From: an uncultured Pseudomonadota bacterium | GTDB taxonomy: Bacteria; Pseudomonadota; Alphaproteobacteria; Rs-D84 | Assembly (NCBI GenBank): GCA_902774305.1 | Contig: CACYHY010000006.1 | Location: 5,649 to 37,648 of the forward strand | DNA length: 32,000 nt | Direction of reading: 5' to 3' | Part shown: positions 301-32,000 of the stretch, one piece after another | How the letters are laid out: the number at the start of each line of letters is the position of its first letter | Numbering within the stretch: position 1 is the first letter of the stretch | The notes under the pieces: generated by a model | Database searches by the model: none | Seen by the model: only the letters and a program-made list of their open reading frames with translations | What the model was told of the DNA's origin: nothing | Position numbers and translations under genes: made by a program

Positions 301-335
301 AAATAAAAAAAACAAGTGCCGGAATCCGGCACTTG
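301..335 (-). terminator. Rho-independent terminator after the 726-aa gene
   Basis: Perfect 10-bp stem caagtgccgg/ccggcacttg (313-322 / 326-335) with a 3-nt loop. On the minus strand it is followed by a T-rich run (complement of 301-312). Confidence 0.75.
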
Positions 336-354
336 CATATAAATTTTGATTATC

Positions 355-2535
355 TTAATGTTCTATGACATCAACTCCTGCATTTGGTGCCACAGGTGTC
401 ACTGGCCCCACAGGTTGTGGTATCACACCATTTCTTGGGCATGCACCGTAAGACACCGCCACAGAACGATTTTCTATACATACACTACCCGCCATTCTGC
501 AAGCGCTGCGTACAGGTACTGTTGTATTACGCCCTGGTCTTTGATAATTGATTACCACAGCGTTACAATCTGCTTGGGTTGTGTACATACCACATGTATC
601 AATCCAGTCTTGGCAAGATGTTACGCGGGCTGTTGGACTGATAGAATCAGCAACACGCAAATTCCATTTTACATAGTAATCTTTCAAAGATCCTATTGTA
701 TATGACTTACCAAATCCAACTACCTCTAAACCATCACCGACATGGCAAGAAATATTATTTCTTTCAACAAATGCGGTAATCGCTGTTGCAACACCACCAG
801 CACCCAAACCAATACCAGCACCAACCAATGTTGTCTTTACTCTATTTGATTCTTGACCCTGCAATATTGTCAAAGTATCAAATATACCAGCAACTTCTTT
901 GATTTGGTTTTTAATTGTTGTTTCATCAACACAGGTTGCCGAAGAACCGCTGCACAAACCATCACCTTCTTTGTTCAATGCCTGACCATTATTCAGCATA
1001 GTTGTATATTTGCATGGTTCTGTCAAACTGCCATATGTTGAACACATACTTTTGCAAACATTCAATGCTTCTACGCTCTCTGCAGACAATAAAACTGGCA
1101 GATTTTCAAATTCCATTTTGTATGTGCCGTCTTCATTTTGAGTCCAATTCAAAGAATTAACAGTTGCGCAATCATTCAATGGTCTAACACCCTTGTCACC
1201 CAAATCTATTTCACATTTTCTTGTTTGTGGTGTACACATTTCAACGGCTTTAACACGTTTCATATATTCTGCATACAAATCAAGCAATTCAGAACACTGA
1301 CTTGTAGAAATATTTGATCCATTTAATGGTTCAGACAAATATTTTGCAACTTTCTTTTCCAAACCATTATCTTTTATCTGTTTCCACAATTCATTACGCA
1401 TACTTTGATCGCCACATTTGAAATCACGAGCGCCATGACCTGACAAAGCACCAATACCAGCACCCAACAGTGTTCCACCGCCCATACCCAAAACAGCAAC
1501 AGTCTTGGTATTATTCATCAGCGAGAAATCAAACAAATCTTTATTGCAAGTAAATGTTGTTCCAGCATCTTGCCATACTTCGGCATCTTTATCATCGCCG
1601 ACAGCACCCAACAACCAGCTGTTACTAATCATTTTATCTTTATTGTACGCAGCAACGCGGATTTTACAAACACCTTCGGTTGCATCCCAACGAGCATAAT
1701 GGCCACGTTCACCATCAACACCGGTATTACCATTCGCAGTAGTATTCACTGTGGCACCTTGTGGGTTTGCTTTGGACAAACTGCCACTTTGTTGGTTGTT
1801 ATATGCACCAATCTTGTTTGCATATTCCGAAGTTACTTCGTCAGTCACACCAGAAACCGCGGCAAAAGATTTACCATAAGTATTTTTATCCAACAATTGG
1901 CAAACATTTTCAGCCTGATTTGGTGTCAAACCTGTTCTACGCAGAACAAAATCATAGTACGCAGGTTGAACAATTCTGGAATTGAAATCCAACCACACAT
2001 CTGTTGCGGCATCATAAACTTTGTGACAATCTACACGCACTTCGCGGATACATTTATCAATTTCCTTCGCGCAAATACCCATACCGCTCATAATAGAATT
2101 ACGCAAATCTTCGTTGTACATGTCATTCAGACCATGTGGTAAAACACCACTTTGGATACAACTGGAAATAGACTGAACACAGTTTTCCGCTGTAAATTCA
2201 GAATTTTCCACACCACCATCTGGACATACCAATGGTGTTGGATTTGGATCAGGGTTTGGTGTTGGTGGTGTTACACCACCGCCATTACCGCCACCATTAC
2301 CGCCGCCATTGTAACCATTATTATCCGTTGACACGCCAGAAACCGCGTGGGTCCCCACAGTATTGATTGACATAGTCGGCATAGTCGGCATACGTGCAGT
2401 AGTCGTAGCAGCACGACCGGCCGTTGCACCACCTGTCATAGAACGGCTCGCAGCATTCGCATCAAATGCGCTAACACACACAACTGCGGCAATTCCCGCA
2501 ATACAAGACCACAACAATTTAGACGTTTTTTGCAT
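355..2535 (-). CDS. Orphan secreted cysteine-rich protein, 726 aa (no family recognised)
   Basis: Long ORF with its own promoter, RBS (GGGAG 8 nt before ATG) and terminator. Sec signal peptide MQKTSKLLWSCIAGIAAVVCVSAFDANA|A. T/A/G/N/P-rich spacer including (NGGG)3. 26 Cys after the signal peptide. Two glycine-zipper-like hydrophobic segments (aa 346-368, 569-590). Confidence 0.85.
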   Translation of the reverse strand: MQKTSKLLWSCIAGIAAVVCVSAFDANAASRSMTGGATAGRAATTTARMPTMPTMSINTVGTHAVSGVSTDNNGYNGGGNGGGNGGGVTPPTPNPDPNPTPLVCPDGGVENSEFTAENCVQSISSCIQSGVLPHGLNDMYNEDLRNSIMSGMGICAKEIDKCIREVRVDCHKVYDAATDVWLDFNSRIVQPAYYDFVLRRTGLTPNQAENVCQLLDKNTYGKSFAAVSGVTDEVTSEYANKIGAYNNQQSGSLSKANPQGATVNTTANGNTGVDGERGHYARWDATEGVCKIRVAAYNKDKMISNSWLLGAVGDDKDAEVWQDAGTTFTCNKDLFDFSLMNNTKTVAVLGMGGGTLLGAGIGALSGHGARDFKCGDQSMRNELWKQIKDNGLEKKVAKYLSEPLNGSNISTSQCSELLDLYAEYMKRVKAVEMCTPQTRKCEIDLGDKGVRPLNDCATVNSLNWTQNEDGTYKMEFENLPVLLSAESVEALNVCKSMCSTYGSLTEPCKYTTMLNNGQALNKEGDGLCSGSSATCVDETTIKNQIKEVAGIFDTLTILQGQESNRVKTTLVGAGIGLGAGGVATAITAFVERNNISCHVGDGLEVVGFGKSYTIGSLKDYYVKWNLRVADSISPTARVTSCQDWIDTCGMYTTQADCNAVVINYQRPGRNTTVPVRSACRMAGSVCIENRSVAVSYGACPRNGVIPQPVGPVTPVAPNAGVDVIEH
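2275..2310 (-). repeat. In-frame 12-nt tandem repeat x3 encoding (NGGG)3
   Basis: Plus strand reads accaccgccatt / accgccaccatt / accgccgccatt. Translates as NGGGNGGGNGGG (aa 76-87 of the 726-aa protein). Confidence 0.9.
2371..2391 (-). repeat. In-frame 9-nt tandem repeat x2.3 encoding MPTMPTM
   Basis: catagtcgg catagtcgg cat on the plus strand; aa 49-55 of the 726-aa protein. Confidence 0.9.
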
Positions 2536-2559
2536 AAAACATTCTCCCTTTTTTTTATC

Positions 2560-2568
2560 ATTATATCA
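2560..2568 (-). promoter_or_regulatory. Extended -10 promoter (TGaTATAAT) of the 726-aa gene
   Basis: Minus strand TGATATAAT (2568-2560), about 17 nt upstream of GGGAG/ATG. There is no good -35, only an AT-rich upstream region. Confidence 0.4.
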
Positions 2569-2618
2569 TAAAAACAGTATAAAAAAAATATTTTTTGTAT
2601 ATTTTTTATCATTTTTAT

Positions 2619-2646
2619 TTGACAAAAAATATATATTGTCTATAAT
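2619..2646 (+). promoter_or_regulatory. Near-consensus sigma70 promoter, leaderless-type, for the 328-aa membrane protein
   Basis: TTGACA (2619-2624), 16 nt, TATAAT (2641-2646). The ATG at 2654 is only 7 nt after the -10, with no SD in between. Confidence 0.6.
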
Positions 2647-2653
2647 AATAAGC

Positions 2654-3640
2654 ATGTCAAAGGTCTTAGATTTTATTAAAAAATGTAAATTGCCAATTTT
2701 ATGGACAATTGGCTATGTATTTTCAGTATGGTTGATTATGCAGTTTTTATTCTACTTTGACATTTTCAACATTCAACATTGGACAAAGGTTTCACACGCG
2801 CATTTACATGGTTTAGGCGGATTAACTTTTTGCATTATTGTATTTGCCGCCGTCCCATTATATATCGCGACCACAACAATCGTTGCCAGAACACAAAAAT
2901 TATTAATCACAATACCTGTTCCAAATTTTATTAAAAACATACTAGAAAAAGTATTTTCTAAACCAGCACCAGTTAAAGAAGAAACAAAAGAAGAATCAAC
3001 CGAATCGGAACCAGAACATCCAACGAACGAAGAATTATCATCTGTACCGGCTGAAATGCGTGGTGCATTTATTCGTGCACGCACACGCGTTAACAAAATA
3101 CCTGCACCTATTTGTGGTGCATGCAGTGTGAATCCAAATGTATATCCTGGGTCAGACACCAAACCAGCTGAACCAACAAATGTACCTGATGATAATTTAC
3201 CCCTGCCCCCGGACTTTGATTTTGACGAAACCGAATCGGCGCCAACAACACCATCTGCGCCAGTATTCCAAGACATAAATTTATATGACGACTTTGACGA
3301 CATAGAAACATCCGCAGAAGACGACAACAATGTTGTATTAAAACACTTTGACGCAACGAATCGGAAATACAACGTTACAGACGATGAAATTATAGTAACA
3401 GATACATCAGCAATCGCGGTACATAACGACCCAGAATTTTGGATTATGGACGACCCAATGTGGTTTGCATCCGGTCAAACACGCGTTTCACCAATACAAT
3501 TGTTACTAGAAACGGCAGAAAAAAATAATATAACCCCAGTATTATTCTTGGGCGCAACAAACATAATGAACTTTGCAGAAAAATGTAAAGAATGGAAATC
3601 CAAAGGCATCAAAGTCGTAACCGATTTATCTGAATTATAA
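2654..3640 (+). CDS. Orphan inner-membrane protein, 328 aa: two N-terminal TM helices, acidic/Pro-rich linker, ~100-aa C-terminal domain
   Basis: ORF-track frame 2363-3640 trimmed to the first ATG downstream of the promoter (MSKVLDFIKKCKLPILW...). The upstream part of the frame overlaps gene 355-2535 and the promoter. Hydrophobic stretches at aa 15-35 and 53-77. D/E/P-rich aa 100-225. CGAC motif at aa 154-157. Confidence 0.7.
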   Translation: MSKVLDFIKKCKLPILWTIGYVFSVWLIMQFLFYFDIFNIQHWTKVSHAHLHGLGGLTFCIIVFAAVPLYIATTTIVARTQKLLITIPVPNFIKNILEKVFSKPAPVKEETKEESTESEPEHPTNEELSSVPAEMRGAFIRARTRVNKIPAPICGACSVNPNVYPGSDTKPAEPTNVPDDNLPLPPDFDFDETESAPTTPSAPVFQDINLYDDFDDIETSAEDDNNVVLKHFDATNRKYNVTDDEIIVTDTSAIAVHNDPEFWIMDDPMWFASGQTRVSPIQLLLETAEKNNITPVLFLGATNIMNFAEKCKEWKSKGIKVVTDLSEL

Positions 3641-3642
3641 TT

Positions 3643-3673
3643 AAAAAAAATCCCCCGATTGGGGGATTTTTTT
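3643..3673. terminator. Bidirectional Rho-independent terminator shared by convergent genes
   Basis: aaaaaaaa-tccccc-gatt-ggggga-ttttttt: GC stem 3651-3656/3661-3666 flanked by an A-run and a T-run. It lies between the stop at 3640 (+) and the stop at 3672-3674 (-). Confidence 0.8.
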
Positions 3674-6506
3674 AATACAACTTTATTGTCTTGGAGGTTT
3701 CTTTTTGTTCACCCCATTTTTCACAATAATTTTTCTTGACCTTGCTACAGTTCTGGGTAATTGTCGTTTTCGTACACTCACCCGATACAGAATTAAACAT
3801 AGTCGTTATATTCGCCTTGTAATTCCATTGATCAACCACTGCTGAACCAGCGACACTAGCAGATGTCGCAATTGTAGCAGCAGCAGCAGCAGCACCAACT
3901 GCCACCGCACCACCAGCAATAGCACCAGCTGTCGACATTGCCACAGGTATTGCTACTGCACCAGCCGCACCGAACGTGAACACAGTAGCAACAACAGCAA
4001 CCGCAGCAATCAAACCAACCGCAATCCATTTACCCGCCTGTGATACTTTTGGTGCTTCAGATACAGGCATTTTACTATTTTCTGCCCAGTCCGCACATGT
4101 TTTCTCTGCCGTCTTTGCCAAATTATCTTTATCAATCTTTTGTGCCGCCTTTACTTGATCCTCCATCATACGTTCAATTTCTTCATCGTATTTTTTCAGA
4201 TAATTTTCACGTGCATTTTTAATTGCCGATGCCGCAATAATTTGACGAATTTGCCCTGTCAAATTCGGGAATCTGGCCTTGCCCGCGCGTCCAATCATTT
4301 TATCGTTTAATCCTTGGACTTGACGTCCGGTCATACAGAATTGAACTTTGGGATCTGATTCAATCGCGTTAATCGCGTTATTGATTGCGCTTTCCAATTG
4401 TTTAATTTCGGTTCCAAAGACACGATCATGAATTATCTGTATTTCTTCTGTTGTCGGTTTATGACCCGCCGCCTTTAATTTTTCTATATATTGGTCTTGG
4501 TTGGTCAGTGCAAACTTGCCATCTGCACCTTCTTCATATGCTATATCACCCCAATATATTGTTCCAGATAATTTACCAGCCCAACCTTTGCCATCCGCTA
4601 ATTTCAAATCTTGTGTAGCGATACCATCTAAGGAATCACGACATATACCATTCCAATTAATATCTTGCGCTGTAATACTATCATACTGGCAAACCTCATA
4701 CTTGAACGAACGTTTACCCGCACCATCGTCAACAACCAAATTATCACAATTTTCTGTATCACCGCAAACCTTTACCATAGATTCATTCATCGCGTTTTGA
4801 CATTGAACCAAGAAAGAGTTATCCATGTTCAACATCAAACCTTCGATTATGTTTTCTATGTTTGCGTAAACTTCTTTTTGACTTAAAGTTTTACCAGCAG
4901 AATCCACATTACATGCAGTTAATTTTTCTGACGGACACATATTGATAATTGTATCTGTATCCAAACCGATACAATTTGCATAATCTTTGCCACAACGATT
5001 GTCATCAGTTAAACAACTTTTAACTTCGTTTGTACATGCGTCAACACGCATAGATGCCAAACGTGCGTAAACATAATCCAAAATCTTTGGTTCTGCCGCA
5101 ACGCATGGGTCAATTTGAACTTTACACAAACTGCGCATTGTATCTGGACGCGACAAACATAAATCGTATGAACCATCTGGGTCATTTGGATCTATGTTAT
5201 CTTTACATGCTTTTTGGAAACATTCAGAAATATTACCAATACAACTCATACGAACATTGGATTCTGCAATCAGTTCCGCAGATTTAATCTCTGGTGCCGC
5301 CTCTTTCAAAAACGCATCCCAAACTTTATCTTTGACCGCGACACAATTCTTTGTCACAGATTCACACATAGGCTTTTTTGCAGTCAATGTATCGTATGTC
5401 GCCGCCGCAATTTCAACAGTGGTCATACCTGTATCGATTTTATACGTCTTTACTACTTGCTTTTTTCTTGTTCCAACTTTGTTTTGTGCATTTTCTGTTG
5501 CAACAATAGATGCACATTTTGAAAAGTCGTCACCACACCCTGCTGTTTGTTGCATACATTCTTTGAAACGAATTGTACACTGACCTAAATCATATTTATT
5601 TTGATTTTGGTATTGTTCCAATGCGGCTTCACGCATTGCTTGTTGGGCTGTTTGTAATTTTTTAGCCGATGCATTTCTTTGTTGCTTCAAACTGTTTTCA
5701 TATGCGGTACAATCAGATTTAATCTGTTGCGTGTACATCATTTTCAACATAGAAAATTCTGGTGAACATTCTTGCATTTGACCAAAACACAGACTTGATA
5801 CAGCCGCATGCAATTCATCACCTTGTTTATCACTTAAATCATTTGTATTACCAAAGATATTAGAAACATCATCAGCAAAAGAAATATCTGTATTCCACGC
5901 ATCCAGATTCAACTTTCTGGCTTTCTTTTGGGTTTTATCTGTATCCTTGTTTTTGTTGGCCCCCGCAACTTTTTCAACCATAGCATTAACCGCATCAGCA
6001 CTTTCGCCCATATTTATGCGTTCAACGCCATCTGTTGCCATAGCATAACTTTGTTCATCTAACTTTTGAATTTCTTCCAATACTTTATCTAACTCTGCAT
6101 TACGATTGCTGCATAAACAACGACCACCATTTGCGTTATCTAACATACAAAAAGAATCCATACAACCATAATATTTTGTTTTGCACTCTTCACTGACAAT
6201 GGTATTTGTGGTTGCACCTGCTATCTTGGTTCCTGAATTTATCACTTTCTGGGTTGTTGCCGCACGCGCAGAAATTCCCCCAGATTTTCCTGACGCAGCC
6301 TTTGTTACCGTTCCACCAGCACTTGGTACTTTTCCACGTGTTACCGCTGCACGTGCCGATGTTGTTGGTGTTGGGGTTACATTATTCGTTGCACTTACTG
6401 TTGCCGGCGCACGTCCACGCGTAGCAGTTGCCGACACACGCGCAGAAAAGGCATCTCCAGCAAATAAAACAGAACATATTACACCCAGTGCAACAAATTT
6501 TTTCAT
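3672..6506 (-). CDS. Orphan secreted cysteine-rich protein, 944 aa (no family recognised)
   Basis: Signal peptide MKKFVALGVICSVLFAGDAFSA|R. T/A/R-rich spacer. 36 Cys after the signal peptide. Coiled-coil-like stretches. 64-aa Gly/Ala hydrophobic block (aa 827-890) followed by a 54-aa tail with 3 Cys. GGAG 7 nt before ATG. Confidence 0.85.
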   Translation of the reverse strand: MKKFVALGVICSVLFAGDAFSARVSATATRGRAPATVSATNNVTPTPTTSARAAVTRGKVPSAGGTVTKAASGKSGGISARAATTQKVINSGTKIAGATTNTIVSEECKTKYYGCMDSFCMLDNANGGRCLCSNRNAELDKVLEEIQKLDEQSYAMATDGVERINMGESADAVNAMVEKVAGANKNKDTDKTQKKARKLNLDAWNTDISFADDVSNIFGNTNDLSDKQGDELHAAVSSLCFGQMQECSPEFSMLKMMYTQQIKSDCTAYENSLKQQRNASAKKLQTAQQAMREAALEQYQNQNKYDLGQCTIRFKECMQQTAGCGDDFSKCASIVATENAQNKVGTRKKQVVKTYKIDTGMTTVEIAAATYDTLTAKKPMCESVTKNCVAVKDKVWDAFLKEAAPEIKSAELIAESNVRMSCIGNISECFQKACKDNIDPNDPDGSYDLCLSRPDTMRSLCKVQIDPCVAAEPKILDYVYARLASMRVDACTNEVKSCLTDDNRCGKDYANCIGLDTDTIINMCPSEKLTACNVDSAGKTLSQKEVYANIENIIEGLMLNMDNSFLVQCQNAMNESMVKVCGDTENCDNLVVDDGAGKRSFKYEVCQYDSITAQDINWNGICRDSLDGIATQDLKLADGKGWAGKLSGTIYWGDIAYEEGADGKFALTNQDQYIEKLKAAGHKPTTEEIQIIHDRVFGTEIKQLESAINNAINAIESDPKVQFCMTGRQVQGLNDKMIGRAGKARFPNLTGQIRQIIAASAIKNARENYLKKYDEEIERMMEDQVKAAQKIDKDNLAKTAEKTCADWAENSKMPVSEAPKVSQAGKWIAVGLIAAVAVVATVFTFGAAGAVAIPVAMSTAGAIAGGAVAVGAAAAAATIATSASVAGSAVVDQWNYKANITTMFNSVSGECTKTTITQNCSKVKKNYCEKWGEQKETSKTIKLY
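3876..3893 (-). repeat. (AGC)6 trinucleotide repeat encoding Ala6
   Basis: agcagcagcagcagcagc on the plus strand, i.e. (GCT)6 on the coding strand; aa 872-877 of the 944-aa protein. Confidence 0.9.
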
Positions 6507-6533
6507 AGAATAACTCCTACAATTATCTTATAT

Positions 6534-6562
6534 ATTTTACCATATTTTTACCTATTTACAAA
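6534..6562 (-). promoter_or_regulatory. Candidate extended -10 promoter of the 944-aa gene
   Basis: Minus strand TGgTAAAAT (6542-6534) with TTGTAA/TTTGTA 16-17 nt upstream (6556-6562), about 20 nt before GGAG. Confidence 0.4.
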
Positions 6563-6633: not shown

Positions 6634-7200
6634 TTATTTACCAGTTGCACGACGTTTAACTGCAACAGTCTTTTTTGCTGTTGTAGCTTTGGCTTTTGGT
6701 GCATCTTTTTCAGCCTTTGGGGCTTTCTTTTCAGCATCAGCCTTTACCGCTTTTGGTGCTTTTTCAGCAGTTTTTTCTTCTGCAACAGGGGTTTCTGCCT
6801 TGGCTGCTTCAGTTTTAACTGTTTTTTTAGCATTTACGTCCCTGTCCACCAATTCGATAATTGCCATTGGTGCTGCATCACCATAACGGAAACCCGCTTT
6901 TAATACGCGTGTATAACCGCCAGGACGTTTTGCATAACGTGGTCCCAACACAGTAAACAATTTTTTAACAGTTGCACTTGTGCCATTGCCTAATTCAGAT
7001 GCAACCAAACGGCGATTTGCAACAGTGTCAACTTTTGCACGTGTAATCAATTTTTCAACGACACTACGCAAATCTTTTGCTTTTGGCAATGTTGTTTTAA
7101 TTTGTTCACGTTCAATTAAATTTTTCGCCAAGCCAATCATCAAAGCTTTGCGAGCATTTGTATCGCGATTAAAAGTGCGACCTGCTTTCATATGTCTCAT
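6634..7200 (-). CDS. rplQ: 50S ribosomal protein L17 with a ~68-aa Lys/Ala/Glu/Pro-rich C-terminal tail
   Basis: [20 protein letters not shown]...[10 protein letters not shown]...GGYTRVLK...IELVDR is the L17 pattern. It follows rpoA. Confidence 0.95.
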
Positions 7201-8940: not shown

Positions 8941-9318
8941 TTATTTACCCTTAGTCGCAGATCCAGCAACCACAACACGTTTACCTTTACGTGTTCTGGC
9001 ATTTGTCTGGGTACGTTGACCACGAACCGGCAAACGGTTACGGTGACGAACACCGCGGTATGTTTTCAAATCTTGCAGACGTTTGATGTTCATTGCAACT
9101 TCACGACGAACATCGCCTTCTACCTTAAAGTTTTGTTCAATGTAATTAGAAATTTTGATAACATCTTCGTCAGTCAAATCTTTCGCGCGCAAACCATCTT
9201 TCAATTTCAACGCAGCGCAAACCTGAACAGCTTTTGCTGGGCCGATACCATGGATGTATGTCAACGCAACTTCGATGCGTTTTTCTGATGGGATGTTAAC
9301 ACCTGCTATACGTGCCAT
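8941..9318 (-). CDS. rpsM: 30S ribosomal protein S13
   Basis: 125 aa; [10 protein letters not shown]...[26 protein letters not shown]. Confidence 0.97.
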
Positions 9319-9376
9319 CTTATATTTTCCTTTTTTATTTAACTTTGAACGAATTTACTTCGTCCGATTACTTTCC

Positions 9377-9401
9377 AAAATCTTGGGGTGCCCAAAATTT
9401 T
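9377..9401 (-). promoter_or_regulatory. Hairpin in the secY-rpsM spacer (leader or weak terminator)
   Basis: Minus strand AAAAUUUUGGG-cac-CCCAAGAUUUU, 11 bp including one G-U. Confidence 0.35.
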
Positions 9402-9421
9402 GTTTTTGATTTCGCCTGTTT

Positions 9422-9449
9422 ATATTATATCAAAACAGACAAAAGTCAA
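9422..9449 (-). promoter_or_regulatory. Candidate promoter upstream of rpsM
   Basis: Minus strand TTGACT (9449-9444), 16 nt, TAATAT (9427-9422). A TATAAT is also present at 14-nt spacing. Confidence 0.3.
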
Positions 9450-9466
9450 ATCTTGTTTGTTGTTTC

Positions 9467-10813
9467 CTAACCGCGGAAACGACCTTGCCTGTGTGTTTTT
9501 TGAACAACACCGCTATATTGTTTTGCAACCAAGTATGATTGAACCTGATTCATAGTATCCAATACCACACCAGCCACGATCAATACACTGGTTCCACCAA
9601 TTACCAAAGGCATACCCGCATGAGTATTCAAGATAATTGGAATAACGCAAACAACAATCAGATAACAAACACCAATTGCAGTTGTTCTGGACACAACAGC
9701 ATCCAAATAAGTTTGTGTTTGTTCACCAGGACGAACACCTGGAATATATCCACCAGCATTTCTTAAATTATTACTGGTCTCTTCAGAATTAAATACCACA
9801 GCAGTTTGGAAGTATGCAAAGAATACAATCAACACTGTGTACAATATGATGTATGACCATGCACCATATGTAAAGAATCCGATAATAGATTGCACAACCA
9901 AACTATCACTTTGTGCAAATCTTTGGATAAACGCAGGTAACATCATAATAGATGCAGCAAACACAGGTCCCATAACACCAGACATATTCACTTTAATTGG
10001 TAAATATGAAGCATTAGTATTCACAACACCATTTGCCATAACCTGACGAGGATATAAAATTTGAATACGACGTTGTGCCTGTTCAAAGAAAGCGATTAAA
10101 GCAACAATACCCACAACAAATGCGACTATTAACATAATCATTGTTGGTGATACCTGCCCAACACTACCCAACGAGAACAATTTACCAATTCCAGATGGAA
10201 CTTCGGCGATAATACCCGCAAAAATCAACAGCGATGCACCCTGTCCTACACCACGTGCAGTAATCTGTTCGGCCAACCACATAACAAATACAGTTCCACC
10301 GACCAGCGCAATCAATGCTGTTAATTCAAATGACCAACCTGGATTTACCACTGCAGGCACACCATTAACCGGTGCCATAGATTCCAATCCACGAATAACC
10401 GCCCAACCTTGAACAACAGCCAACACAACCGCCAAATAACGAGTGTACTGATTAATTTTGATACGACCAGATTCACCCTCTTTACGCAAATCTGTCAATG
10501 ATTTGCTGGTTGCTGTTAACAATTGCAAAACGATGGATGCAGAAATGTATGGAAAAATATTCAATGCTAAAACAGACATACGGGATAAAGATCCACCCGC
10601 AAACATATCGAACATTCCCAGCATTCCACTGCCTTCGCCTTGGAACAAGTGTAAAACAGCCGAAGCATTAACACCTGGTAATGGAATAAAAGAACCGATA
10701 CGGTAAACAATCAAAGCGCCCAACGTAAATAAAATACGTTTCTGCAAATCTGTCAGATTTTTGAAAAAGTTTTTTATTGCTCTCATCGCTTTACTTTTTT
10801 GAATTGGATTCAT
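9467..10813 (-). CDS. secY: Preprotein translocase subunit SecY
   Basis: 448 aa, multi-TM; ...RILFTLGALIVYRIGSFIPLPGVN... signature. It follows rplO. The alternative start at M10 is not excluded. Confidence 0.95.
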   Translation of the reverse strand: MNPIQKSKAMRAIKNFFKNLTDLQKRILFTLGALIVYRIGSFIPLPGVNASAVLHLFQGEGSGMLGMFDMFAGGSLSRMSVLALNIFPYISASIVLQLLTATSKSLTDLRKEGESGRIKINQYTRYLAVVLAVVQGWAVIRGLESMAPVNGVPAVVNPGWSFELTALIALVGGTVFVMWLAEQITARGVGQGASLLIFAGIIAEVPSGIGKLFSLGSVGQVSPTMIMLIVAFVVGIVALIAFFEQAQRRIQILYPRQVMANGVVNTNASYLPIKVNMSGVMGPVFAASIMMLPAFIQRFAQSDSLVVQSIIGFFTYGAWSYIILYTVLIVFFAYFQTAVVFNSEETSNNLRNAGGYIPGVRPGEQTQTYLDAVVSRTTAIGVCYLIVVCVIPIILNTHAGMPLVIGGTSVLIVAGVVLDTMNQVQSYLVAKQYSGVVQKTHRQGRFRG

Positions 10814-10839
10814 GCCCCAGAATACAATATTCTAGGGGC
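10814..10839 (-). promoter_or_regulatory. Hairpin abutting the secY start codon
   Basis: Minus strand GCCCC-u-AGAAUA-uug-UAUUCU-GGGGC (11 bp, one bulge). The 3' arm ends 1 nt before the ATG at 10813. Confidence 0.45.
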
Positions 10840-10852
10840 ATCGAATAAATTA

Positions 10853-11311
10853 TTATTTATTAGAAATTTTTCCACCTGCTTTCACAATTGCTTCTTCAGC
10901 AGCTTTGGACCATTTATCAGCAACAACAGTCACAGCTGTTTTAATTTCGCCTTTGGCCAAAACTTTCAATCCAGATAATTTACGATTGATAATTTTTGCA
11001 GCCAACAAAGAATCCATTGTGATAGTAGATTTTGCATCAATTTTACCACTCGCGATAAACTTTTCGATATCACCTAAATTGATTGTTACATATTCTTTCG
11101 CAAAAGGATTTGTAAAACCAAATTTTGGGAAACGACGCAAGATTGGCATTTGACCACCCTGGAAAGTTGCTTGTTTACGAGACCCCGCACGAGCCTTTTG
11201 ACCTTTGGTTCCACGACCGCAAGTTTTACCATAACCACAAGCCAAACCACGACCAACGCGTTTAACGTCTTTACGTGCACCCATATTATCCATCAATGCA
11301 TTTAATTTCAT
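10853..11311 (-). CDS. rplO: 50S ribosomal protein L15
   Basis: 152 aa; ...GRGLACGYGKTCGRGTKGQKARAG... Confidence 0.95.
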   Translation of the reverse strand: MKLNALMDNMGARKDVKRVGRGLACGYGKTCGRGTKGQKARAGSRKQATFQGGQMPILRRFPKFGFTNPFAKEYVTINLGDIEKFIASGKIDAKSTITMDSLLAAKIINRKLSGLKVLAKGEIKTAVTVVADKWSKAAEEAIVKAGGKISNK

Positions 11312-11332
11312 TTTTTTTCCTTTTTGTCCTAC

Positions 11333-11377
11333 GACTATACATATAGTCTATGTCGCACATAATACAAGATTATGTAC
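11333..11377 (-). promoter_or_regulatory. Two adjacent hairpins in the 81-nt rpmD-rplO spacer
   Basis: GACTATA/TATAGTC (11333-11348). GUACAUAAU-cuugu-AUUAUGUGC (11377-11355) contains a U-G pair that is valid only in the minus-strand RNA. Confidence 0.4.
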
Positions 11378-11392
11378 TCGGTTTTATTTTAA

Positions 11393-11572
11393 TTATTTTT
11401 CAACGATTTCAACAAGGTGTGAAACACGTGCAACCATGCCACGCACACTTTCTGTATCATTGACTTCTTTTGTTTTGCCAATACGGCCCAAACCCAAAGC
11501 AGCGACAATTTTACGCTGATATTCTGGGCGACCGATAATGCTTTTTACTTGTTTTACAATTATTTTAGCCAT
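11393..11572 (-). CDS. rpmD: 50S ribosomal protein L30
   Basis: ORF trimmed to the ATG at 11572 (MAKIIVKQVKSIIGRP...), with GGAG 7 nt upstream. Confidence 0.9.
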   Translation of the reverse strand: MAKIIVKQVKSIIGRPEYQRKIVAALGLGRIGKTKEVNDTESVRGMVARVSHLVEIVEK

Positions 11573-11597
11573 GTCTATCTCCATTTATTACCAGCAA

Positions 11598-12155
11598 TTA
11601 TTTTTCTTCTTCTGCTTTTTCTAATTTTTTGCCATCACGACCTGCGATGATTTCAGCAACTGTTTTACCACGACGTGCAGCAACAGTTTTTGGAGAATTC
11701 ATTTTCGCAAATGCCAAGAAAGCAGCTCTGATCATATTGTTTGGATTATTTGAACCTTGGGATTTAACCACAACGTCTTGAACGCCCAAACATTCAAATA
11801 CAGAACGTAAAGCACCACCAGCGATAATACCAGTACCAGGAACAGCACTACGTACAACCAATTTACTTGCACCGTATTTAGAAGAAATATCATGGTGTAA
11901 TGTACGACCTTCTTTCAAAGGAACTCTAATCATTTTTGCTTTTGCAGCCTTGGTTGCTTTTTGAACTGCACTTTGTACTTCCAAAGCTTTACCTTTACCA
12001 AAACCGACACGACCTGCTTTATCTCCAACAACGACCAATGCGCTGAAAGACATATTACGACCGCCCTTCACGGTTTTAGAAACACGGTTGATAGAAACTA
12101 ATTTATCTACCAAGTTATCTGTTTGCAATTTTTTATCATCAAAACGTGCCATCAT
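11598..12155 (-). CDS. rpsE: 30S ribosomal protein S5
   Basis: 185 aa; ...[24 protein letters not shown]... Confidence 0.96.
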
Positions 12156-12169
12156 AAATCTCCGTTTTA

Positions 12170-12526
12170 TTAAATTCTAACACCACCTGCGCGAATCGCT
12201 TCACACAGAGCTTTTACACGACCATGATAACGAAAACCACCACGGTCAAAATAACAGTTGTCTGCAATACCGGCTTTCACGACACGTTCAGCAAATGTTT
12301 TGCCTACTAATTCTGCACCAGCAACATTCCAACCTTTGCCAGCAAAGCCTTTTTCTTTACTTGATGCTGCACACAATGTATGGCCACGTGTATCATCAAT
12401 CGCCTGAACTTCGATATGACGTCCAGAACGAAAAACAGATAAACGAATTTTACCAGGATTTTTTCTTTTCAACGCACCGCGATTCGCCAAAGTACGTCTT
12501 TCACCCGAAGTCAAATGTTTTAACAT
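12170..12526 (-). CDS. rplR: 50S ribosomal protein L18
   Basis: Trimmed to the ATG at 12526 ([11 protein letters not shown]...), AAGGA upstream; ...[15 protein letters not shown]... Confidence 0.93.
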
Positions 12527-12576
12527 TTTTTGTCCTTTTGTTTCGATTCCCGTAACAGCGGAAACCATCTTATTTA

Positions 12577-13128
12577 TTATTTCTTTTTACCTTCTTTACG
12601 GCGGATATTTTCACCCTTATAGAAGATACCTTTACCTTTATATGGATCTGCTTTACGGATTTTGTGAATCTTGTCCGCAAACAGCCCCAACAAGCATTTA
12701 TCAATTCCACTGATTGTAAATTCAGTTGGTTTTTCACCCATTTTTACAGAAAGTCCTTCTGGAATTTCCATAACCACATCATGAGAAAAACCTACAACCA
12801 ATGTAAATTTGTTGCCACTGACCGATGCTTTATAACCAACACCGTTCATATACATATCTTTTGAAAAGCCTTTTGATACACCTTCTACCGCAGACTTGAT
12901 ATTGCGAGTCATAGTTCCCCACATAGCGCGAGAAGTTTTATCTTCAGAATCTTTTGGTGTGACAACGATACTGCCGTCTTTGATTTCAACATCAACCAAA
13001 TGCGAATTTTTTGTATCCAACAGAACTTTCAATTCACCTTTTGGACCTTTTACAACCACAGCATTGTCTTTGATTTCCGCAGACACGCCGTCTTGTAATT
13101 TAACTGGATATTTTCCTGCACGAGACAT
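12577..13128 (-). CDS. rplF: 50S ribosomal protein L6
   Basis: Trimmed to the ATG at 13128 (MSRAGKYPVKL...), AAGGA upstream; C-terminal ...PYKGKGIFYKGE... Confidence 0.93.
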   Translation of the reverse strand: MSRAGKYPVKLQDGVSAEIKDNAVVVKGPKGELKVLLDTKNSHLVDVEIKDGSIVVTPKDSEDKTSRAMWGTMTRNIKSAVEGVSKGFSKDMYMNGVGYKASVSGNKFTLVVGFSHDVVMEIPEGLSVKMGEKPTEFTISGIDKCLLGLFADKIHKIRKADPYKGKGIFYKGENIRRKEGKKK

Positions 13129-13147
13129 TTCTTCATCCTTATTTCTA

Positions 13148-13546
13148 TTAGATAACCTTGCACAATACTTCGCCACCAACATTCATCAAGCGTGCTTTGT
13201 GATCAGTCATAACGCCATGAGGTGTAGAAACAATTGCGATACCCAAACCATTCAAAACTCTTGGCATTTTTGCACAACCTGAATAAACACGACGACCAGG
13301 TCTGGACACAACTGCAATTTCTTGGATTGCGCCATTTCCGCCATTGTATTTCAATTCAATAATCAAATTAGAACGATGTTCGTCAATTTGTTCTTTGCGA
13401 AAATCAGTGATGAAACCTTCATCCTTCAAAACAGTCAAAACTGCTGCACGCAATTTGCTGTTTGGGACAGTTACAAATTCTTTACCGGCTGCTTGACCAT
13501 TACGAATACGAGTCAGCATATCTCCGATTGGGTGTGATAATGACAT
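13148..13546 (-). CDS. rpsH: 30S ribosomal protein S8
   Basis: Trimmed to the ATG at 13546 (MSLSHPIGDMLTRIRNG...), GGAG upstream. Confidence 0.95.
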   Translation of the reverse strand: MSLSHPIGDMLTRIRNGQAAGKEFVTVPNSKLRAAVLTVLKDEGFITDFRKEQIDEHRSNLIIELKYNGGNGAIQEIAVVSRPGRRVYSGCAKMPRVLNGLGIAIVSTPHGVMTDHKARLMNVGGEVLCKVI

Positions 13547-13619
13547 CTTTTTACTCCTTGTTTGTGGATAATTCCACATTCAACCCCAGCTGCATTGTCC
13601 ACAACTGGTATTCTTGTTT

Positions 13620-13922
13620 TTACCAACTAGATTTACGTACGCCTGGCAATTTGCCTTCGGATGCCATTGTACGAACTTGTTGACGGCACAAACCAAACAT
13701 ACGTGAATAACCACGTGCACGGCCAGTTACCGAACAACGATTATGCAAACGTGTTGGATTAGCATTGCGTGGCAATTTTGCCAATTTTTTCATTGCTTCC
13801 ATACGTTCGTCTGGTGTTGCATTAACAGACATTTTTTCTTTGATTGCAGCACGCTTTTTAGCATATTTTGCAACCAATTGTTCGCGTCTGTGTTGCTTGT
13901 TAATCAATGATAATTTAGCCAT
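13620..13922 (-). CDS. rpsN: 30S ribosomal protein S14 (long form)
   Basis: 100 aa; ...RLHNRCSVTGRARGYSRMFGLCR..., ends KSSW. Confidence 0.95.
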   Translation of the reverse strand: MAKLSLINKQHRREQLVAKYAKKRAAIKEKMSVNATPDERMEAMKKLAKLPRNANPTRLHNRCSVTGRARGYSRMFGLCRQQVRTMASEGKLPGVRKSSW

Positions 13923-13939
13923 CTTTTTTCCTTACTGCT

Positions 13940-14485
13940 TTATTTCAAAACCAATGGCAAGCCGATTTTTGTCAGCAATGCACGAGCTTCGTCATCTGTT
14001 TTTGCTGTTGTTGCAATGACAATATCCATACCACGGATAGAATCAATTTTATCAACAGAAATTTCTGGGAAGATTAAGTGTTCTTTGATACCAAATGCGT
14101 AATTTCCACGACCATCAAATTTAGATTTTGACAATCCACGAAAATCCTTTACACGTGGCAAAGCAACTGTAATCAATTTATCCAAGAAATCATACATTCT
14201 TTTACCGCGCAATGTAACCTTGGTACCAATAGCCTGACCTTCACGCAAACGATATGTAGCAATTGACTTTTTCGCATGCGTAACCACAGGTTTCTGGGCA
14301 GCAATAGCTGTTAAATCAACAACTGCTGCATCCAATTTCTTTTTATCAGACACTGCTTCACCAACGCCCATGTTCAAAACAATTTTATCAAGTTTTGGCA
14401 CAGCCAGTGCATTTGTATAGCCGAATTCTTTTACCAATTCTGGCACAACTTGTTTTTCATAAAATTCACGCAATCTACTTTGCAT
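13940..14485 (-). CDS. rplE: 50S ribosomal protein L5
   Basis: 181 aa; ...[11 protein letters not shown]...[18 protein letters not shown]... Confidence 0.96.
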
Positions 14486-25508: not shown

Positions 25509-26324
25509 TTAGAAATCAATACCGAATTTAGCACCAAAGCCAAAGCCGTCATCCCAACCCCATTCGTCAGCAGCATTGCCATCGTGATGGTTCAAAGAAC
25601 CTTTAACATATGCACCAACGAACTTTGTTGCATCGATGTTATAGTTTACACCAAACATACCGTTCCATGTACCAGCATTTTTAACTTTAAGACCTTCGAC
25701 ATCATCATCCATAACGCCTCTGTATTCAACACCTGCAACCAAGTTCAATTTGTCACACAATACATATTGACCATCAACACCCAATCTTAATGCATGAAAA
25801 CCATCATCACCCCAGTTAAAGGATTCTGTGTTCAAGTAATCGAACGCAACATGACCTGCAACTGTGAACAAAGATGTTGTGTAACCACCACGAACACCTG
25901 CTGTCCATGTATAACCAGTCAAACCTTTATCCAAAAATTCTGAATGATCAGCCCACATTGGATCAACAGTGTAAGCGCCCAATACATCTAATTTCCATGC
26001 GCCCATATCCAAAGCGCGGAAAGCAGCAGCAAATGTTGTTTCTTCCCAAGCTACTTGATCAAATGTATCATTTTCCATCATTCCTGTAGAAATTTGGACA
26101 GCCAATTTATCTGTGATACCATAACCAAAATCTTCGCCTAAATTCCATTTATTGATTTGTTCATCTCCATTAACAAATTTATCCGTATGAGAAGACAAAT
26201 CTGTTACACTGTAAAAATGATTCGCTTTTGGCATATATAATGGATTACCGTCAATAACGTTTGCAGCGTGTGCGCCAGAAACAGCAAATACAGCAATTAA
26301 AGATGATAAAGCTAATTTTTTCAT
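25509..26324 (-). CDS. Outer-membrane beta-barrel protein (porin/Omp-like), 271 aa
   Basis: Trimmed to the ATG at 26324 (MKKLALSSLIAVFAVSGAHA|A signal peptide; AAGGA upstream). Alternating amphipathic strands, Gly/aromatic-rich, C-terminal ...GAKFGIDF with terminal Phe. Confidence 0.7.
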   Translation of the reverse strand: MKKLALSSLIAVFAVSGAHAANVIDGNPLYMPKANHFYSVTDLSSHTDKFVNGDEQINKWNLGEDFGYGITDKLAVQISTGMMENDTFDQVAWEETTFAAAFRALDMGAWKLDVLGAYTVDPMWADHSEFLDKGLTGYTWTAGVRGGYTTSLFTVAGHVAFDYLNTESFNWGDDGFHALRLGVDGQYVLCDKLNLVAGVEYRGVMDDDVEGLKVKNAGTWNGMFGVNYNIDATKFVGAYVKGSLNHHDGNAADEWGWDDGFGFGAKFGIDF

Positions 26325-29440: not shown

Positions 29441-29517
<77 letters not shown>

Positions 29518-31294: not shown

Positions 31295-32000
31295 TTAATA
31301 TATACCGAATTTTTCCAATAAATTATTCATATTCGTACGCAAATCTTCACGGTCAGATGCCCAAACCAATTGTCGCATAAAGAATTTATACACATCATCC
31401 ATACGCAAATTTGGCATACCTGCCGCAGTTGCAACATTATGCCAGGCTGTGCGTGGATCCATCAAATGATTCTTGCAGCGACCTACAAAAACCCAATCGC
31501 CATCTTGGGGCATATTTTCCAACAACACAACCGCCACATCTGGCAACGGCCATTCACGCCATAAATAATGATTAAAATCTAATTCATCCCAGCGCATAGA
31601 TAAAACTTTATTCTTTGGCAAAAACGAATAAATCATCATCAAGAATGCATTTTTCATAACTTCGGTTTCTTGACTTTTGATAACATCCAATAAACGCAAA
31701 ACCTTTTCTTCGTTTAATGGGCTAAGCCTACGTTGTTGAACAATTTTTGGCAATCCCAAAACAGGATTATTTTTTGCATATCCTTGATCTATTGCGTATT
31801 TAAACAAACTGGCTAAAACCTCTTGCATACGAGCAGCAATAGCCCTGCCCTTAATTTTTCCGATTACACTTTCGACATCTGCTTTGGAAATATCAGAAAC
31901 ATTTTTATCAAATAATTCGCCCAAATGCATATTTACAGCACGCACCAATTTAACTTCGGAATCTTCACTTCTGCGCACCTGATTTTTTAAATAAATGTCC
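31295..32000 (-). CDS. P4-type tyrosine-recombinase (integrase)-like protein, apparently catalytically degenerate and C-terminally short; 5' end off-window
   Basis: The frame stays open from nt 32000 (...DIYLKNQVRRSEDSEV...) to the stop at 31295. ...ISKADVESVIGKIKGRAIAARMQEVLASLFKYAIDQGYAKNNPV... and ...LMMIYSFLPKNKVLSMRWDELDF... follow integrase core-binding and box-I patterns. The box-I Arg, the HxxR box and the Tyr region are not recognisable. Confidence 0.5.
   Translation of the reverse strand, partial: DIYLKNQVRRSEDSEVKLVRAVNMHLGELFDKNVSDISKADVESVIGKIKGRAIAARMQEVLASLFKYAIDQGYAKNNPVLGLPKIVQQRRLSPLNEEKVLRLLDVIKSQETEVMKNAFLMMIYSFLPKNKVLSMRWDELDFNHYLWREWPLPDVAVVLLENMPQDGDWVFVGRCKNHLMDPRTAWHNVATAAGMPNLRMDDVYKFFMRQLVWASDREDLRTNMNNLLEKFGIY

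Follow-up and report, generated by a model that had tools for sequence, protein, structure and literature searches.

The window analysed here is a stretch of 32,000 nucleotides from an uncultured alphaproteobacterium of the order Rs-D84 (GenBank assembly GCA_902774305.1, contig CACYHY010000006.1, positions 5,649 to 37,648 of the forward strand), and this report concerns three of its genes, termed A, B and C, which lie between a methyltransferase-type gene and rplQ. A first-pass annotation, made by reading the sequence, had described them as an orphan locus in which two large cysteine-rich exported proteins flank a membrane protein with two transmembrane (TM) helices. The three open reading frames (ORFs) were recovered with exactly the same coordinates and strands:

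355 to 2535, minus strand: gene A, ORF of 726 amino acids, exported, cysteine-rich
2654 to 3640, plus strand: gene B, ORF of 328 amino acids, membrane protein
3672 to 6506, minus strand: gene C, ORF of 944 amino acids, exported, cysteine-rich

Beyond gene A, a DUF3419/BtaA-like gene of methyltransferase type starts at 243 on the minus strand, and its homologues match PF11899. Beyond gene C lies rplQ (6634-7200), for which the identical 188-amino-acid gene on contig L082, of the same genome, matches PF01196.

A word-indexed search returned at least 721 homologues of A, 49 of B and at least 1310 of C, all without protein names and from metagenome-assembled genomes (MAGs) titled 'Alphaproteobacteria bacterium'. 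A profile search with C gave 925 representatives at 50% identity, and relatives of C are encoded in 284 GTDB species genomes. The C-carrying genomes, whose titles include Candidatus Enterousia, uncultured Alphaproteobacteria and Rickettsiales, stem from rumen, faeces, termite gut and one spring; a circular chromosome of 958,618 bp (OZ007020.1) is among the carriers. Other phyla were absent from the ten least similar of 150 listed C representatives (the best of 925 matches), which were titled 'Rickettsiales bacterium' or had no name. The alphaproteobacterial host suspected from the window itself is confirmed by the MAGs of Rs-D84 and Candidatus Enterousia among the homologue sources. Members of Rs-D84 have genomes smaller than 1 Mb, lack a respiratory chain and the tricarboxylic acid (TCA) cycle, have few transporters and are predicted to be partner-dependent (PMC12306168). 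Ca. Enterousia avicola has a GC content of 39% (PMC8035907), the same as that of the window, along which GC content is uniform.

We surveyed linkage in 80 loci around C homologues (numbered with the prefix L below). In 57 of the 80 loci, both A and B are found no more than 10 kb from C, and the B-A pair is divergent in every one of these 57, its two genes being 114-523 bp apart (median 144). The pair is within 700 bp of C in 44 loci. The commonest order, rpoA-rplQ-C followed by B-A, is that of the window, and the B-A block in some loci is inverted or on the other side of C. The trio, for which the first-pass annotation had suggested a check of co-occurrence and adjacency in relatives, is conserved and linked, and the outcome that would have spoken against it, a lack of conservation, did not occur.

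Some loci depart from this arrangement. C is duplicated in tandem in L050, L054, L055, L058, L060, L064, L073, L076, L078 and L079, where the C match spans 5-6 kb. A subclade (L015, L028, L034, L038, L050 and L069; for example L050 16177-21971) has no A or B near C, carries two distant C paralogues of ~720 and ~800-890 amino acids, and also carries a 234-amino-acid family with the leader ATPWWQQPTVCRLNPTNCY.

None of the three proteins could be assigned to a family. A, B and C, together with 67 aligned homologues, gave nothing above threshold against Pfam, NCBIfam and PHROGs; sub-threshold matches to DUF2207_C, DUF4476, Trypan_PARP and Psb34 were compositional and were rejected. Profile searches of PDB sequences with A, B and C gave no match, B having none in Pfam or NCBIfam either, and Foldseek gave no match for the orphan proteins. 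The description of the trio as lacking a recognised family therefore holds in all of these searches, and a confident match to a characterised family did not appear.

Architecture and cysteine pattern of the three proteins

We judged the signal peptides of A, C and their homologues by inspection and hydropathy. All have the features of Sec-dependent export with cleavage by signal peptidase I (SPase I), namely a K-rich basic n-region, a hydrophobic core and an AxA-type site. For A, the cut site first proposed (between AFDANA and A) was upheld. The signal peptide of C was likewise upheld but not its cut site, which had been placed between GDAFSA and R: homologues align with cleavage between ADA and A, and cleavage after GDA is more likely. 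A lipoprotein reading of A and C was ruled out, as the signal-peptide cysteines are neither conserved nor in a lipobox context. The sequence comparisons thus show A, B and C to be real, conserved and linked orphan genes, with A and C encoding proteins that carry the predicted signals for export.

After removal of the signal peptide, 26 of the 28 cysteines of A remain (two being inside it) and 36 of the 37 of C (one inside), in agreement with the earlier count. Cysteine makes up 3.9% of both proteins, whereas the median among the ORFs of related loci is 1.2%. The domains of A are as follows, all on the minus strand:

2452 to 2535: signal peptide, residues 1-28, ending in AFDANA before A; hydrophobic core at residues 3-30 by hydropathy
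2227 to 2451: spacer, residues 29-103, rich in G/T/P/N by composition
2356 to 2397: leader motif ARMPTMPT..IN..G within the spacer, residues 47-60; R47, M48, P49, P52 and G60 invariant
1516 to 2226: N-domain, residues 104-340, with 9 invariant cysteines; the best-conserved part of the protein
1438 to 1512: glycine-zipper segment 1, residues 342-366, GGGTLLGAGIGALSG, between the invariant cysteines C330 and C374; Kyte-Doolittle maximum 1.68
841 to 1437: middle domain, residues 367-565, with a hypervariable core at 431-527 (955-1245)
757 to 840: glycine-zipper segment 2, residues 566-593, between C535 and C597, from hydropathy and conservation
436 to 756: C-domain, residues 594-700, with 7 invariant cysteines including three CX6C pairs, from conservation and cysteine counts

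Conservation along A is very uneven. In an alignment of 22 sequences, 22 of the 26 cysteines are invariant. Across 57 homologues the N-domain has a length of 231-237, a mean top-residue frequency of 0.78 and, in 55 of the 57, 9 cysteines; the C-domain has a mean top-residue frequency of 0.71 and 7 or 13 cysteines. The two zipper segments are conserved to a similar degree (0.77 and 0.79), with G352, G353, G357, G361 and G365 invariant in the first and G571, G575, G579 and G580 in the second. Their hydropathy is marginal (1.6-1.7; hydrophobic blocks at 345-365 and 568-590). The core of the middle domain drops to 0.26 and varies in length from 40 to 133, and the middle domain contains an even number of cysteines (4 to 14) in 57 of 57 homologues. 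The AlphaFold2 (AF2) model of A has a predicted local distance difference test (pLDDT) score of 52, and its N-domain falls below 50, that is, it is unmodelled despite its high conservation.

The domains of C, again all on the minus strand, are as follows:

6441 to 6506: signal peptide, from hydropathy and alignment
6186 to 6506: signal peptide with a T/A/S/G/R-rich spacer ending in the conserved motif ARAATTQKVI..GTK, from alignment and composition
4047 to 6185: ectodomain, residues 108-820, mainly long helices, with 33 cysteines; AF2 pLDDT 60-87 over most of the region
5514 to 5579: twin-CX6C module 1, residues 310-331 (CTIRFKECMQQTAGCGDDFSKC), a C-X6-C-X6-C-X6-C run
4971 to 5036: twin-CX6C module 2, residues 491-512, a C-X6-C-X6-C-X6-C run
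3834 to 4031: hydrophobic block, a TM-like helix at 826-849 followed by a Gly/Ala-rich stretch at 850-891; Kyte-Doolittle maxima 2.43 and 1.86
3675 to 3833: tail domain, residues 892-944, predicted beta-hairpins, with 3 cysteines here and 5 in most homologues

Of the 36 cysteines of C, 34 are invariant and two near-invariant. The conservation profile has a variable block at residues 601-700, and the Gly/Ala-rich stretch ranges from 2 to 135 residues among homologues. The AF2 model (pLDDT 61; predicted template modelling score, pTM, 0.40) contains helices of 37-60 residues at moderate confidence, a helix-loop-helix at residues ~306-342 that spans the first CX6C run, and a C-terminal beta-hairpin domain, in which four strands at 882-941 have a pLDDT of ~58-83, mostly 74-83.

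The first-pass annotation had seen a single design in A and C. Export, cysteine-richness and the spacers (rich in T/A/G/S/R/P) are indeed common to both, but homology between the two is not detectable, and paralogy was rejected (no BLASTP match; hhalign probability 1.5%). The Gly/Ala-rich blocks said to lie towards the C-terminus do so in C (821-891) but not in A, where two blocks lie mid-protein and not just near the C-terminus. After the signal peptide, both proteins open with an Arg/Ser/Thr/Ala-rich stretch that closes in a short conserved motif (ARMPTMPT in A, 2227-2451; ARAATTQKVI in C, 6186-6440). The leader motif of A recurs in an unrelated neighbouring family, E (described below), with an hhalign A-E probability of 89% confined to the N-terminal leader, and could be a sorting or anchoring signal common to A and E.

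Protein B fits its original description as a membrane protein with two N-terminal TM helices by hydropathy. Its features, all on the plus strand, are as follows:

2696 to 2764: TM1, residues 15-37, by hydropathy
2810 to 2884: TM2, residues 53-77, by hydropathy
2885 to 3388: Pro/acidic linker, from the alignment
3389 to 3637: conserved C-terminal domain, from the alignment

The linker contains the short conserved motifs PAEMRGAFIRAR, PLPPDFDFD and APVFQDINF. Because the N-terminus is K-rich and R/K residues follow TM2, both termini of B are predicted to be inside, with the large domain cytoplasmic.

The cysteines of A and C have a characteristic spacing. A CX6C arrangement (a spacing of 7) accounts for 11 of the 35 cysteine intervals in C, against 1.08 expected (p<5e-5), and for 6 of 25 in A, against 0.75 expected (p=1e-4), an enrichment of about tenfold. 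This spacing is the commonest in families C, A, D, E and H (the last three are introduced below) and makes up 2.3% in other ORFs; a spacing of 3 leads only among background ORFs.

Cysteines also appear and disappear in twos, as judged from counts over family members that are not phylogenetically independent. The variable cysteine columns of the C family co-occur (606/622, 108/115 and 914/938); at positions 914/938, both residues or neither are cysteine in many separate sequence clusters, and mixed states almost never occur. Among 90 full-length homologues of C, cysteine counts are 31, 33 or 35 in the ectodomain and 3, 5 or 7 in the tail, each odd and changing in steps of two, and their sum is even in about 80 of the 90. 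These patterns show, at the level of sequence, that the cysteines of A and C are under strong pairwise constraint. The near-invariance, CX6C periodicity and gain or loss in twos strengthen the earlier suggestion that the cysteines are disulfide-bonded, which is the probable state to which they point.

Cysteine-rich neighbours and expression signals

The description as a three-gene locus needs correcting: the trio makes up one part of a larger island, whose exported protein families are rich in cysteine. Grouping the cysteine-rich ORFs of 82 loci around C yielded the following families, together with a small membrane protein:

Family D: ~288 amino acids, 20 cysteines, motif CSRxNLTxCLDSACAIN...ARCQYCG
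Family E: 450-760 amino acids, with the ARMPTM leader motif, as in A, in some members
Family F: ~170 amino acids, small membrane protein
Family G: ~766 amino acids, with a CarboxypepD_reg N-terminus, a cysteine-rich centre and an OmpA-like peptidoglycan-binding C-terminus
Families H and I: ~657 and ~246 amino acids, between rpsK and rpoA in about ten genomes
Family J: ~234 amino acids

In 40-46 loci, a D-E(-G) operon is present no more than 10 kb from C. On the L082 contig, which is identical to the window and runs beyond its left edge, the methyltransferase-type gene is followed by E and D on the opposite strand and then by F (9434-14024; E, 753 amino acids with 46 cysteines, exported; D, 286 amino acids with 20 cysteines, exported; F, 167 amino acids, membrane). 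Only the boundary of the window separates the trio from these neighbours. Profile comparison with hhalign gave probabilities of 93% for E-D, 64% for C-E and 71% for C-D, the last over a ...C..PEC...SDC.A...C...C....CG.DFS.C module. D and E may thus have a module in common with C, a link that hhalign makes suggestive without amounting to proof. One island protein of a relative contains Flg_new and Ephrin_rec_like repeats.

About ten relatives (L001 13191-16354; L003 2777-5892; L010, L061, L063, L065, L067 and L077) have three orphan genes inserted between rpsK and rpoA, encoding proteins of ~105, ~657 (28-34 cysteines, leader ANVATTAGSNLTAYNGTG) and ~245 amino acids. The insert, which the window lacks, splits the otherwise universal alpha operon. 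The DUF3419/BtaA-like gene encodes an S-adenosylmethionine-dependent enzyme (window 243-1, minus strand; L001 3500-4372) and accompanies the island in 43 related loci, adjoining B, C or A; the enzyme might modify an envelope lipid or protein.

The following expression signals were read around the trio:

2619 to 2646, plus strand: promoter of B, a perfect TTGACA-16-TATAAT, ending 7 nt before the ATG
2560 to 2568, minus strand: extended -10 promoter of A, TGaTATAAT (TGATATAAT), read from the sequence
2544 to 2548, minus strand: ribosome-binding site of A, GGGAG
6534 to 6561, minus strand: promoter of C, TTGTAA-16-TAAAAT with TG
6514 to 6518, minus strand: ribosome-binding site of C, AGGAG
312 to 336, minus strand: terminator after A, a strong signal with an 11-bp stem and T-run
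3651 to 3666, both strands: bidirectional terminator, a hairpin that separates B from the convergent gene C; TCCCCCGATTGGGGGA, T-runs on either strand

Each gene had been credited with its own promoter and terminator; promoter signals are present upstream of all three, and terminators follow A and lie between B and C. Promoter-like sites in the region overall are not above chance (19 against 20.9 expected), so the argument for these promoters relies on position and conservation. A comparable, sigma-70-like promoter lies upstream of B in 48 of 55 related loci (B-A intergenic regions among L003-L080), in most of those 48 ending 4-9 nt before the B start, and in 33 of the 55 TGnTAnnnT precedes the start of A by 23-26 nt. 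Because the promoter ends so few nucleotides before the start of B, in the window and in relatives, B is probably translated from a leaderless mRNA.

Elsewhere in the window, at 9318-9467, secY is followed directly by rpsM, with no adk between them; adk stands between these genes in many Alphaproteobacteria. A weak phage-integrase-like ORF (31295-31978, minus strand; below Pfam cut-offs) lies near a tRNA-Pro(CGG) gene (29441-29517, minus strand) towards the far end. An orphan ORF at 25509-26324 (minus strand) has a signal peptide (MKKLALSSLIAVFAVSGAHA), an aromatic/Gly-rich composition and the C-terminus ...GAKFGIDF, with no match in Pfam, NCBIfam or PDB. Judged by these features it is likely to be an outer-membrane beta-barrel protein, and the cell is therefore probably diderm.

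Comparison with known cysteine-rich and glycine-zipper systems

The nearest functional analogy is the chlamydial OmcA/OmcB complex. There, several exported cysteine-rich envelope proteins (OmcA and OmcB, with MOMP) act together in a host-dependent bacterium with a reduced genome, and disulfide cross-linking stiffens the envelope (PMC6752827). The features that would indicate membership fail, and the parallel, which was first drawn as an analogy, stands as that alone: Chlam_OMP6 and DUF11 have no match in A, B, C or the 67 family members at E<=0.05, and no homology was found. OmcA is a small lipoprotein and OmcB is made of repeats rich in beta structure, whereas A and C are helix-rich, contain CX6C modules and Gly/Ala hydrophobic segments, and have no lipobox; cross-linking between molecules is hypothetical here.

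Mitochondrial twin-CX9C/CX3C (CHCH) proteins resemble the modules in another way. They have cysteine pairs at a fixed helical spacing on antiparallel helices, joined by two disulfides, in a compartment equivalent to the periplasm, and C310-X6-C317...C324-X6-C331 of protein C follows this logic with its putative disulfides. The spacing is, however, 6 and not 9 or 3, and the modules sit within Sec-exported proteins of 700-950 amino acids, in contrast to CHCH proteins of ~10 kDa. There is no CHCH match in Pfam for A, B, C or homologues, and nothing indicates homology or a Mia40-like oxidase.

The invariant GxxxGxxxG of the short hydrophobic segments in A recalls the glycine-zipper families (Gly-zipper_Omp, YMGG and Rick_17kDa_Anti; SlyB/Pcp lipoproteins; VacA-type channels). 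Testing PF13488, PF13441 and PF05433 gave Gly-zipper matches (YMGG, Omp) in 3 of 22 A-family members, with E-values of 0.008-0.036, below the curated cut-off. A differs from these families in that it is no lipoprotein and its zippers lie between large cysteine-rich domains, with invariant cysteines at their flanks.

Other systems are more distant. The Sel1-like repeats of Helicobacter Hcp proteins and the middle repeat region of CagY (for the latter, PMC10706595) are likewise built of disulfide-stabilised helical units that are exported or span the envelope; their cysteine spacing is different, A and C have no regular tandem repeat, and neither Sel1 (PF08238) nor CagY matched A, B, C or homologues. 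An OmpA domain, of the type found in OmpA and Pal, is absent from A, B and C, and its presence in the island neighbour G ties the island to the cell wall. TraN has no match in the A and C families, whose neighbours are ribosomal, methyltransferase-like and other orphan genes. Autotransporter and YadA_anchor domains also gave no match, and the C tail (four predicted strands) differs from autotransporters in being preceded by a hydrophobic Gly/Ala block and in holding conserved cysteines.

The literature likewise yielded no CX6C periplasmic proteins and no comparable system. The A, B and C families, the twin-CX6C module and the proposed stapled-hairpin arrangement are new, in that no described counterpart was found; their function is inferred.

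Candidate roles at the cell envelope

Our preferred, though still tentative, reading is that A and C are wholly extracytoplasmic, helix-rich proteins that are stapled by disulfides and held at a membrane by disulfide-closed Gly/Ala hairpins, and that they build an envelope or surface scaffold in company with D, E and G, leaving the A middle domain exposed. A, B and C would then be core chromosomal genes of Rs-D84, within a conserved, lineage-specific, cysteine-rich envelope island beside the ribosomal-protein operon. Uniform GC content, strong promoters and ribosome-binding sites, and the high conservation of the A N- and C-domains (0.78 and 0.71) are in keeping with core-gene behaviour.

Within such a scaffold, disulfides would staple hairpins of antiparallel helices, for example at the twin-CX6C run C310/C317 with C324/C331. 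The pairs predicted for C are 310-331, 317-324, 491-512, 498-505, 804-911 and 914-938; at the last two positions most homologues have cysteine, and the protein of the window has T914 and S938. The simplest reading of the domain-wise cysteine parity is that every domain of A and C folds oxidatively and none is cytoplasmic. With all domains outside the cytoplasm, including the A middle domain and the C tail, the Gly/Ala-rich segments would be membrane-dipping hairpins, and the hydrophobic blocks of A and C are probably not simple anchors. Each hairpin base would be closed by a disulfide between flanking invariant cysteines (C330-C374 and C535-C597 in A; C804-C911 in C), and with these three bridges assigned, all remaining domain cysteine counts become even. 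The hairpins may keep A and C at a membrane surface, where with D, E and the peptidoglycan-binding G they would form a disulfide-stabilised scaffold of the periplasm or outer envelope, with the hypervariable middle domain of A as the best candidate for an exposed face. B would sit in the inner membrane with one domain in the cytoplasm; co-regulated with A from the common divergent promoter region, it probably serves as a partner in assembly or regulation.

Several points weigh against this scaffold. In about nine fully flanked loci, A and B are missing from the neighbourhood of C, no relative was found by structure or by sequence, and AF2 confidence is low to moderate (pLDDT 52 for A and 61 for C). 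The same parity test, applied with a crude signal-peptide cut, gives mostly odd cysteine counts for families E, G and J, and the parity and co-occurrence counts come from phylogenetically non-independent sequences; for these two reasons whole-protein parity was judged useful only in part as a statistic. The 23-residue helix of C, with a Kyte-Doolittle value of 2.43, would normally be a stop-transfer anchor, and an adhesin would account for the expansion of paralogues and for the hypervariable domain just as well as a scaffold would. Rs-D84 are also anaerobes without a respiratory chain (PMC12306168), so the usual DsbB-quinone route of periplasmic oxidation may be missing.

Of the roles first proposed for the locus (envelope scaffold, adhesin or host interaction), the scaffold is followed by interaction with a partner or host, which we consider possible but the less probable of the two. 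A and C would here be surface adhesins or contact-dependent pore formers, with zippers that insert in a partner membrane or form a channel for metabolites. GxxxGxxxG zippers are typical of homo-oligomeric channels, and the zipper glycines of A are invariant. Variable regions (the indel-rich A middle domain and residues 601-700 of C), the tandem duplicates and distant paralogues of C, and the surface-type Flg_new and Ephrin_rec_like repeats in neighbouring island proteins would all suit such a role, as would the prediction that Rs-D84 are obligate symbionts or parasites lacking uptake systems and many pathways (PMC12306168). The very strong order-wide conservation of the non-variable parts and the fixed housekeeping position of the genes are nevertheless more typical of a core envelope component than of adhesins exposed to pressure from a host; moreover, Pfam and NCBIfam recognise no adhesin, toxin or secretion-system domain, and the partner organism is hypothetical.

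An inner-membrane topology is unlikely. C would be bitopic, with a periplasmic ectodomain and a cytoplasmic tail, and A would cross the membrane twice and have its middle domain in the cytoplasm, where the B domain, itself predicted to be cytoplasmic, could contact both. The hydropathy of C at 826-849 is typical of a stop-transfer sequence, A has two hydrophobic segments, and some C homologues have just ~25-30 hydrophobic residues. What speaks for the extracytoplasmic scaffold instead is that the C tail cysteines change in pairs, with an odd tail and an odd ectodomain giving an even sum, that the A middle domain always has an even number, and that the A segments are Gly-rich with marginal hydropathy (1.6-1.7).

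It is improbable that the cysteines are metal (Zn/Fe) ligands or redox-active thiols, serving metal storage or the handling of sulfur or electrons in an anoxic gut, rather than structural disulfides. Their invariance would allow it, and oxidative folding is problematic for an organism that has no respiratory chain and lives in an anoxic habitat (PMC12306168). The dominant spacing is, however, CX6C, whereas CXXC or CX2CX2C would be typical of metal or Fe-S sites, no pattern of His/Asp co-ligands and no match to a metal-binding family was found, and pairwise gain and loss suit bonded pairs. Mobile-element cargo or spurious ORFs, for which the integrase-like ORF at 31295-31978 could be cited, are effectively refuted, as that ORF is 25 kb distant, GC content is uniform, synteny is kept across the order, hundreds of full-length homologues have invariant residues and there is no PHROG match.

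A bolder extension of the scaffold, which we regard as speculative and rather unlikely in this full form, is that the island represents a previously undescribed type of envelope. A lattice of unrelated orphan twin-CX6C proteins, pinned by disulfide-closed zipper hairpins, would act as a thiol/disulfide switch. Its reduced state, in the anoxic gut or while the cell is on a partner, would be pliable (or channel-competent); once the cell is shed into air, oxidation would turn the lattice into a rigid protective shell, giving a transmission form. Such an air-oxidised form would resemble the chlamydial elementary body in logic, not in ancestry.

The finding at this locus is genuine and reproducible, and broader than three genes. 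It supplies testable targets in the form of specific predicted disulfides, topology predictions and a likely exposed variable domain, and it raises the puzzle of how dozens of cysteines per protein would be oxidised in an anaerobe without a respiratory chain. Rs-D84 and Ca. Enterousia occur widely in the guts of humans, ruminants, birds and termites, with genomes of less than 1 Mb that lack most biosynthesis and known transporters, and their lifestyle is a riddle (PMC12306168). Several percent of this small genome is spent on an order-wide island of giant orphan cysteine-rich exported proteins, an investment that marks the island out as the most obvious candidate for a structure defining the envelope of these bacteria or their contact with a partner.

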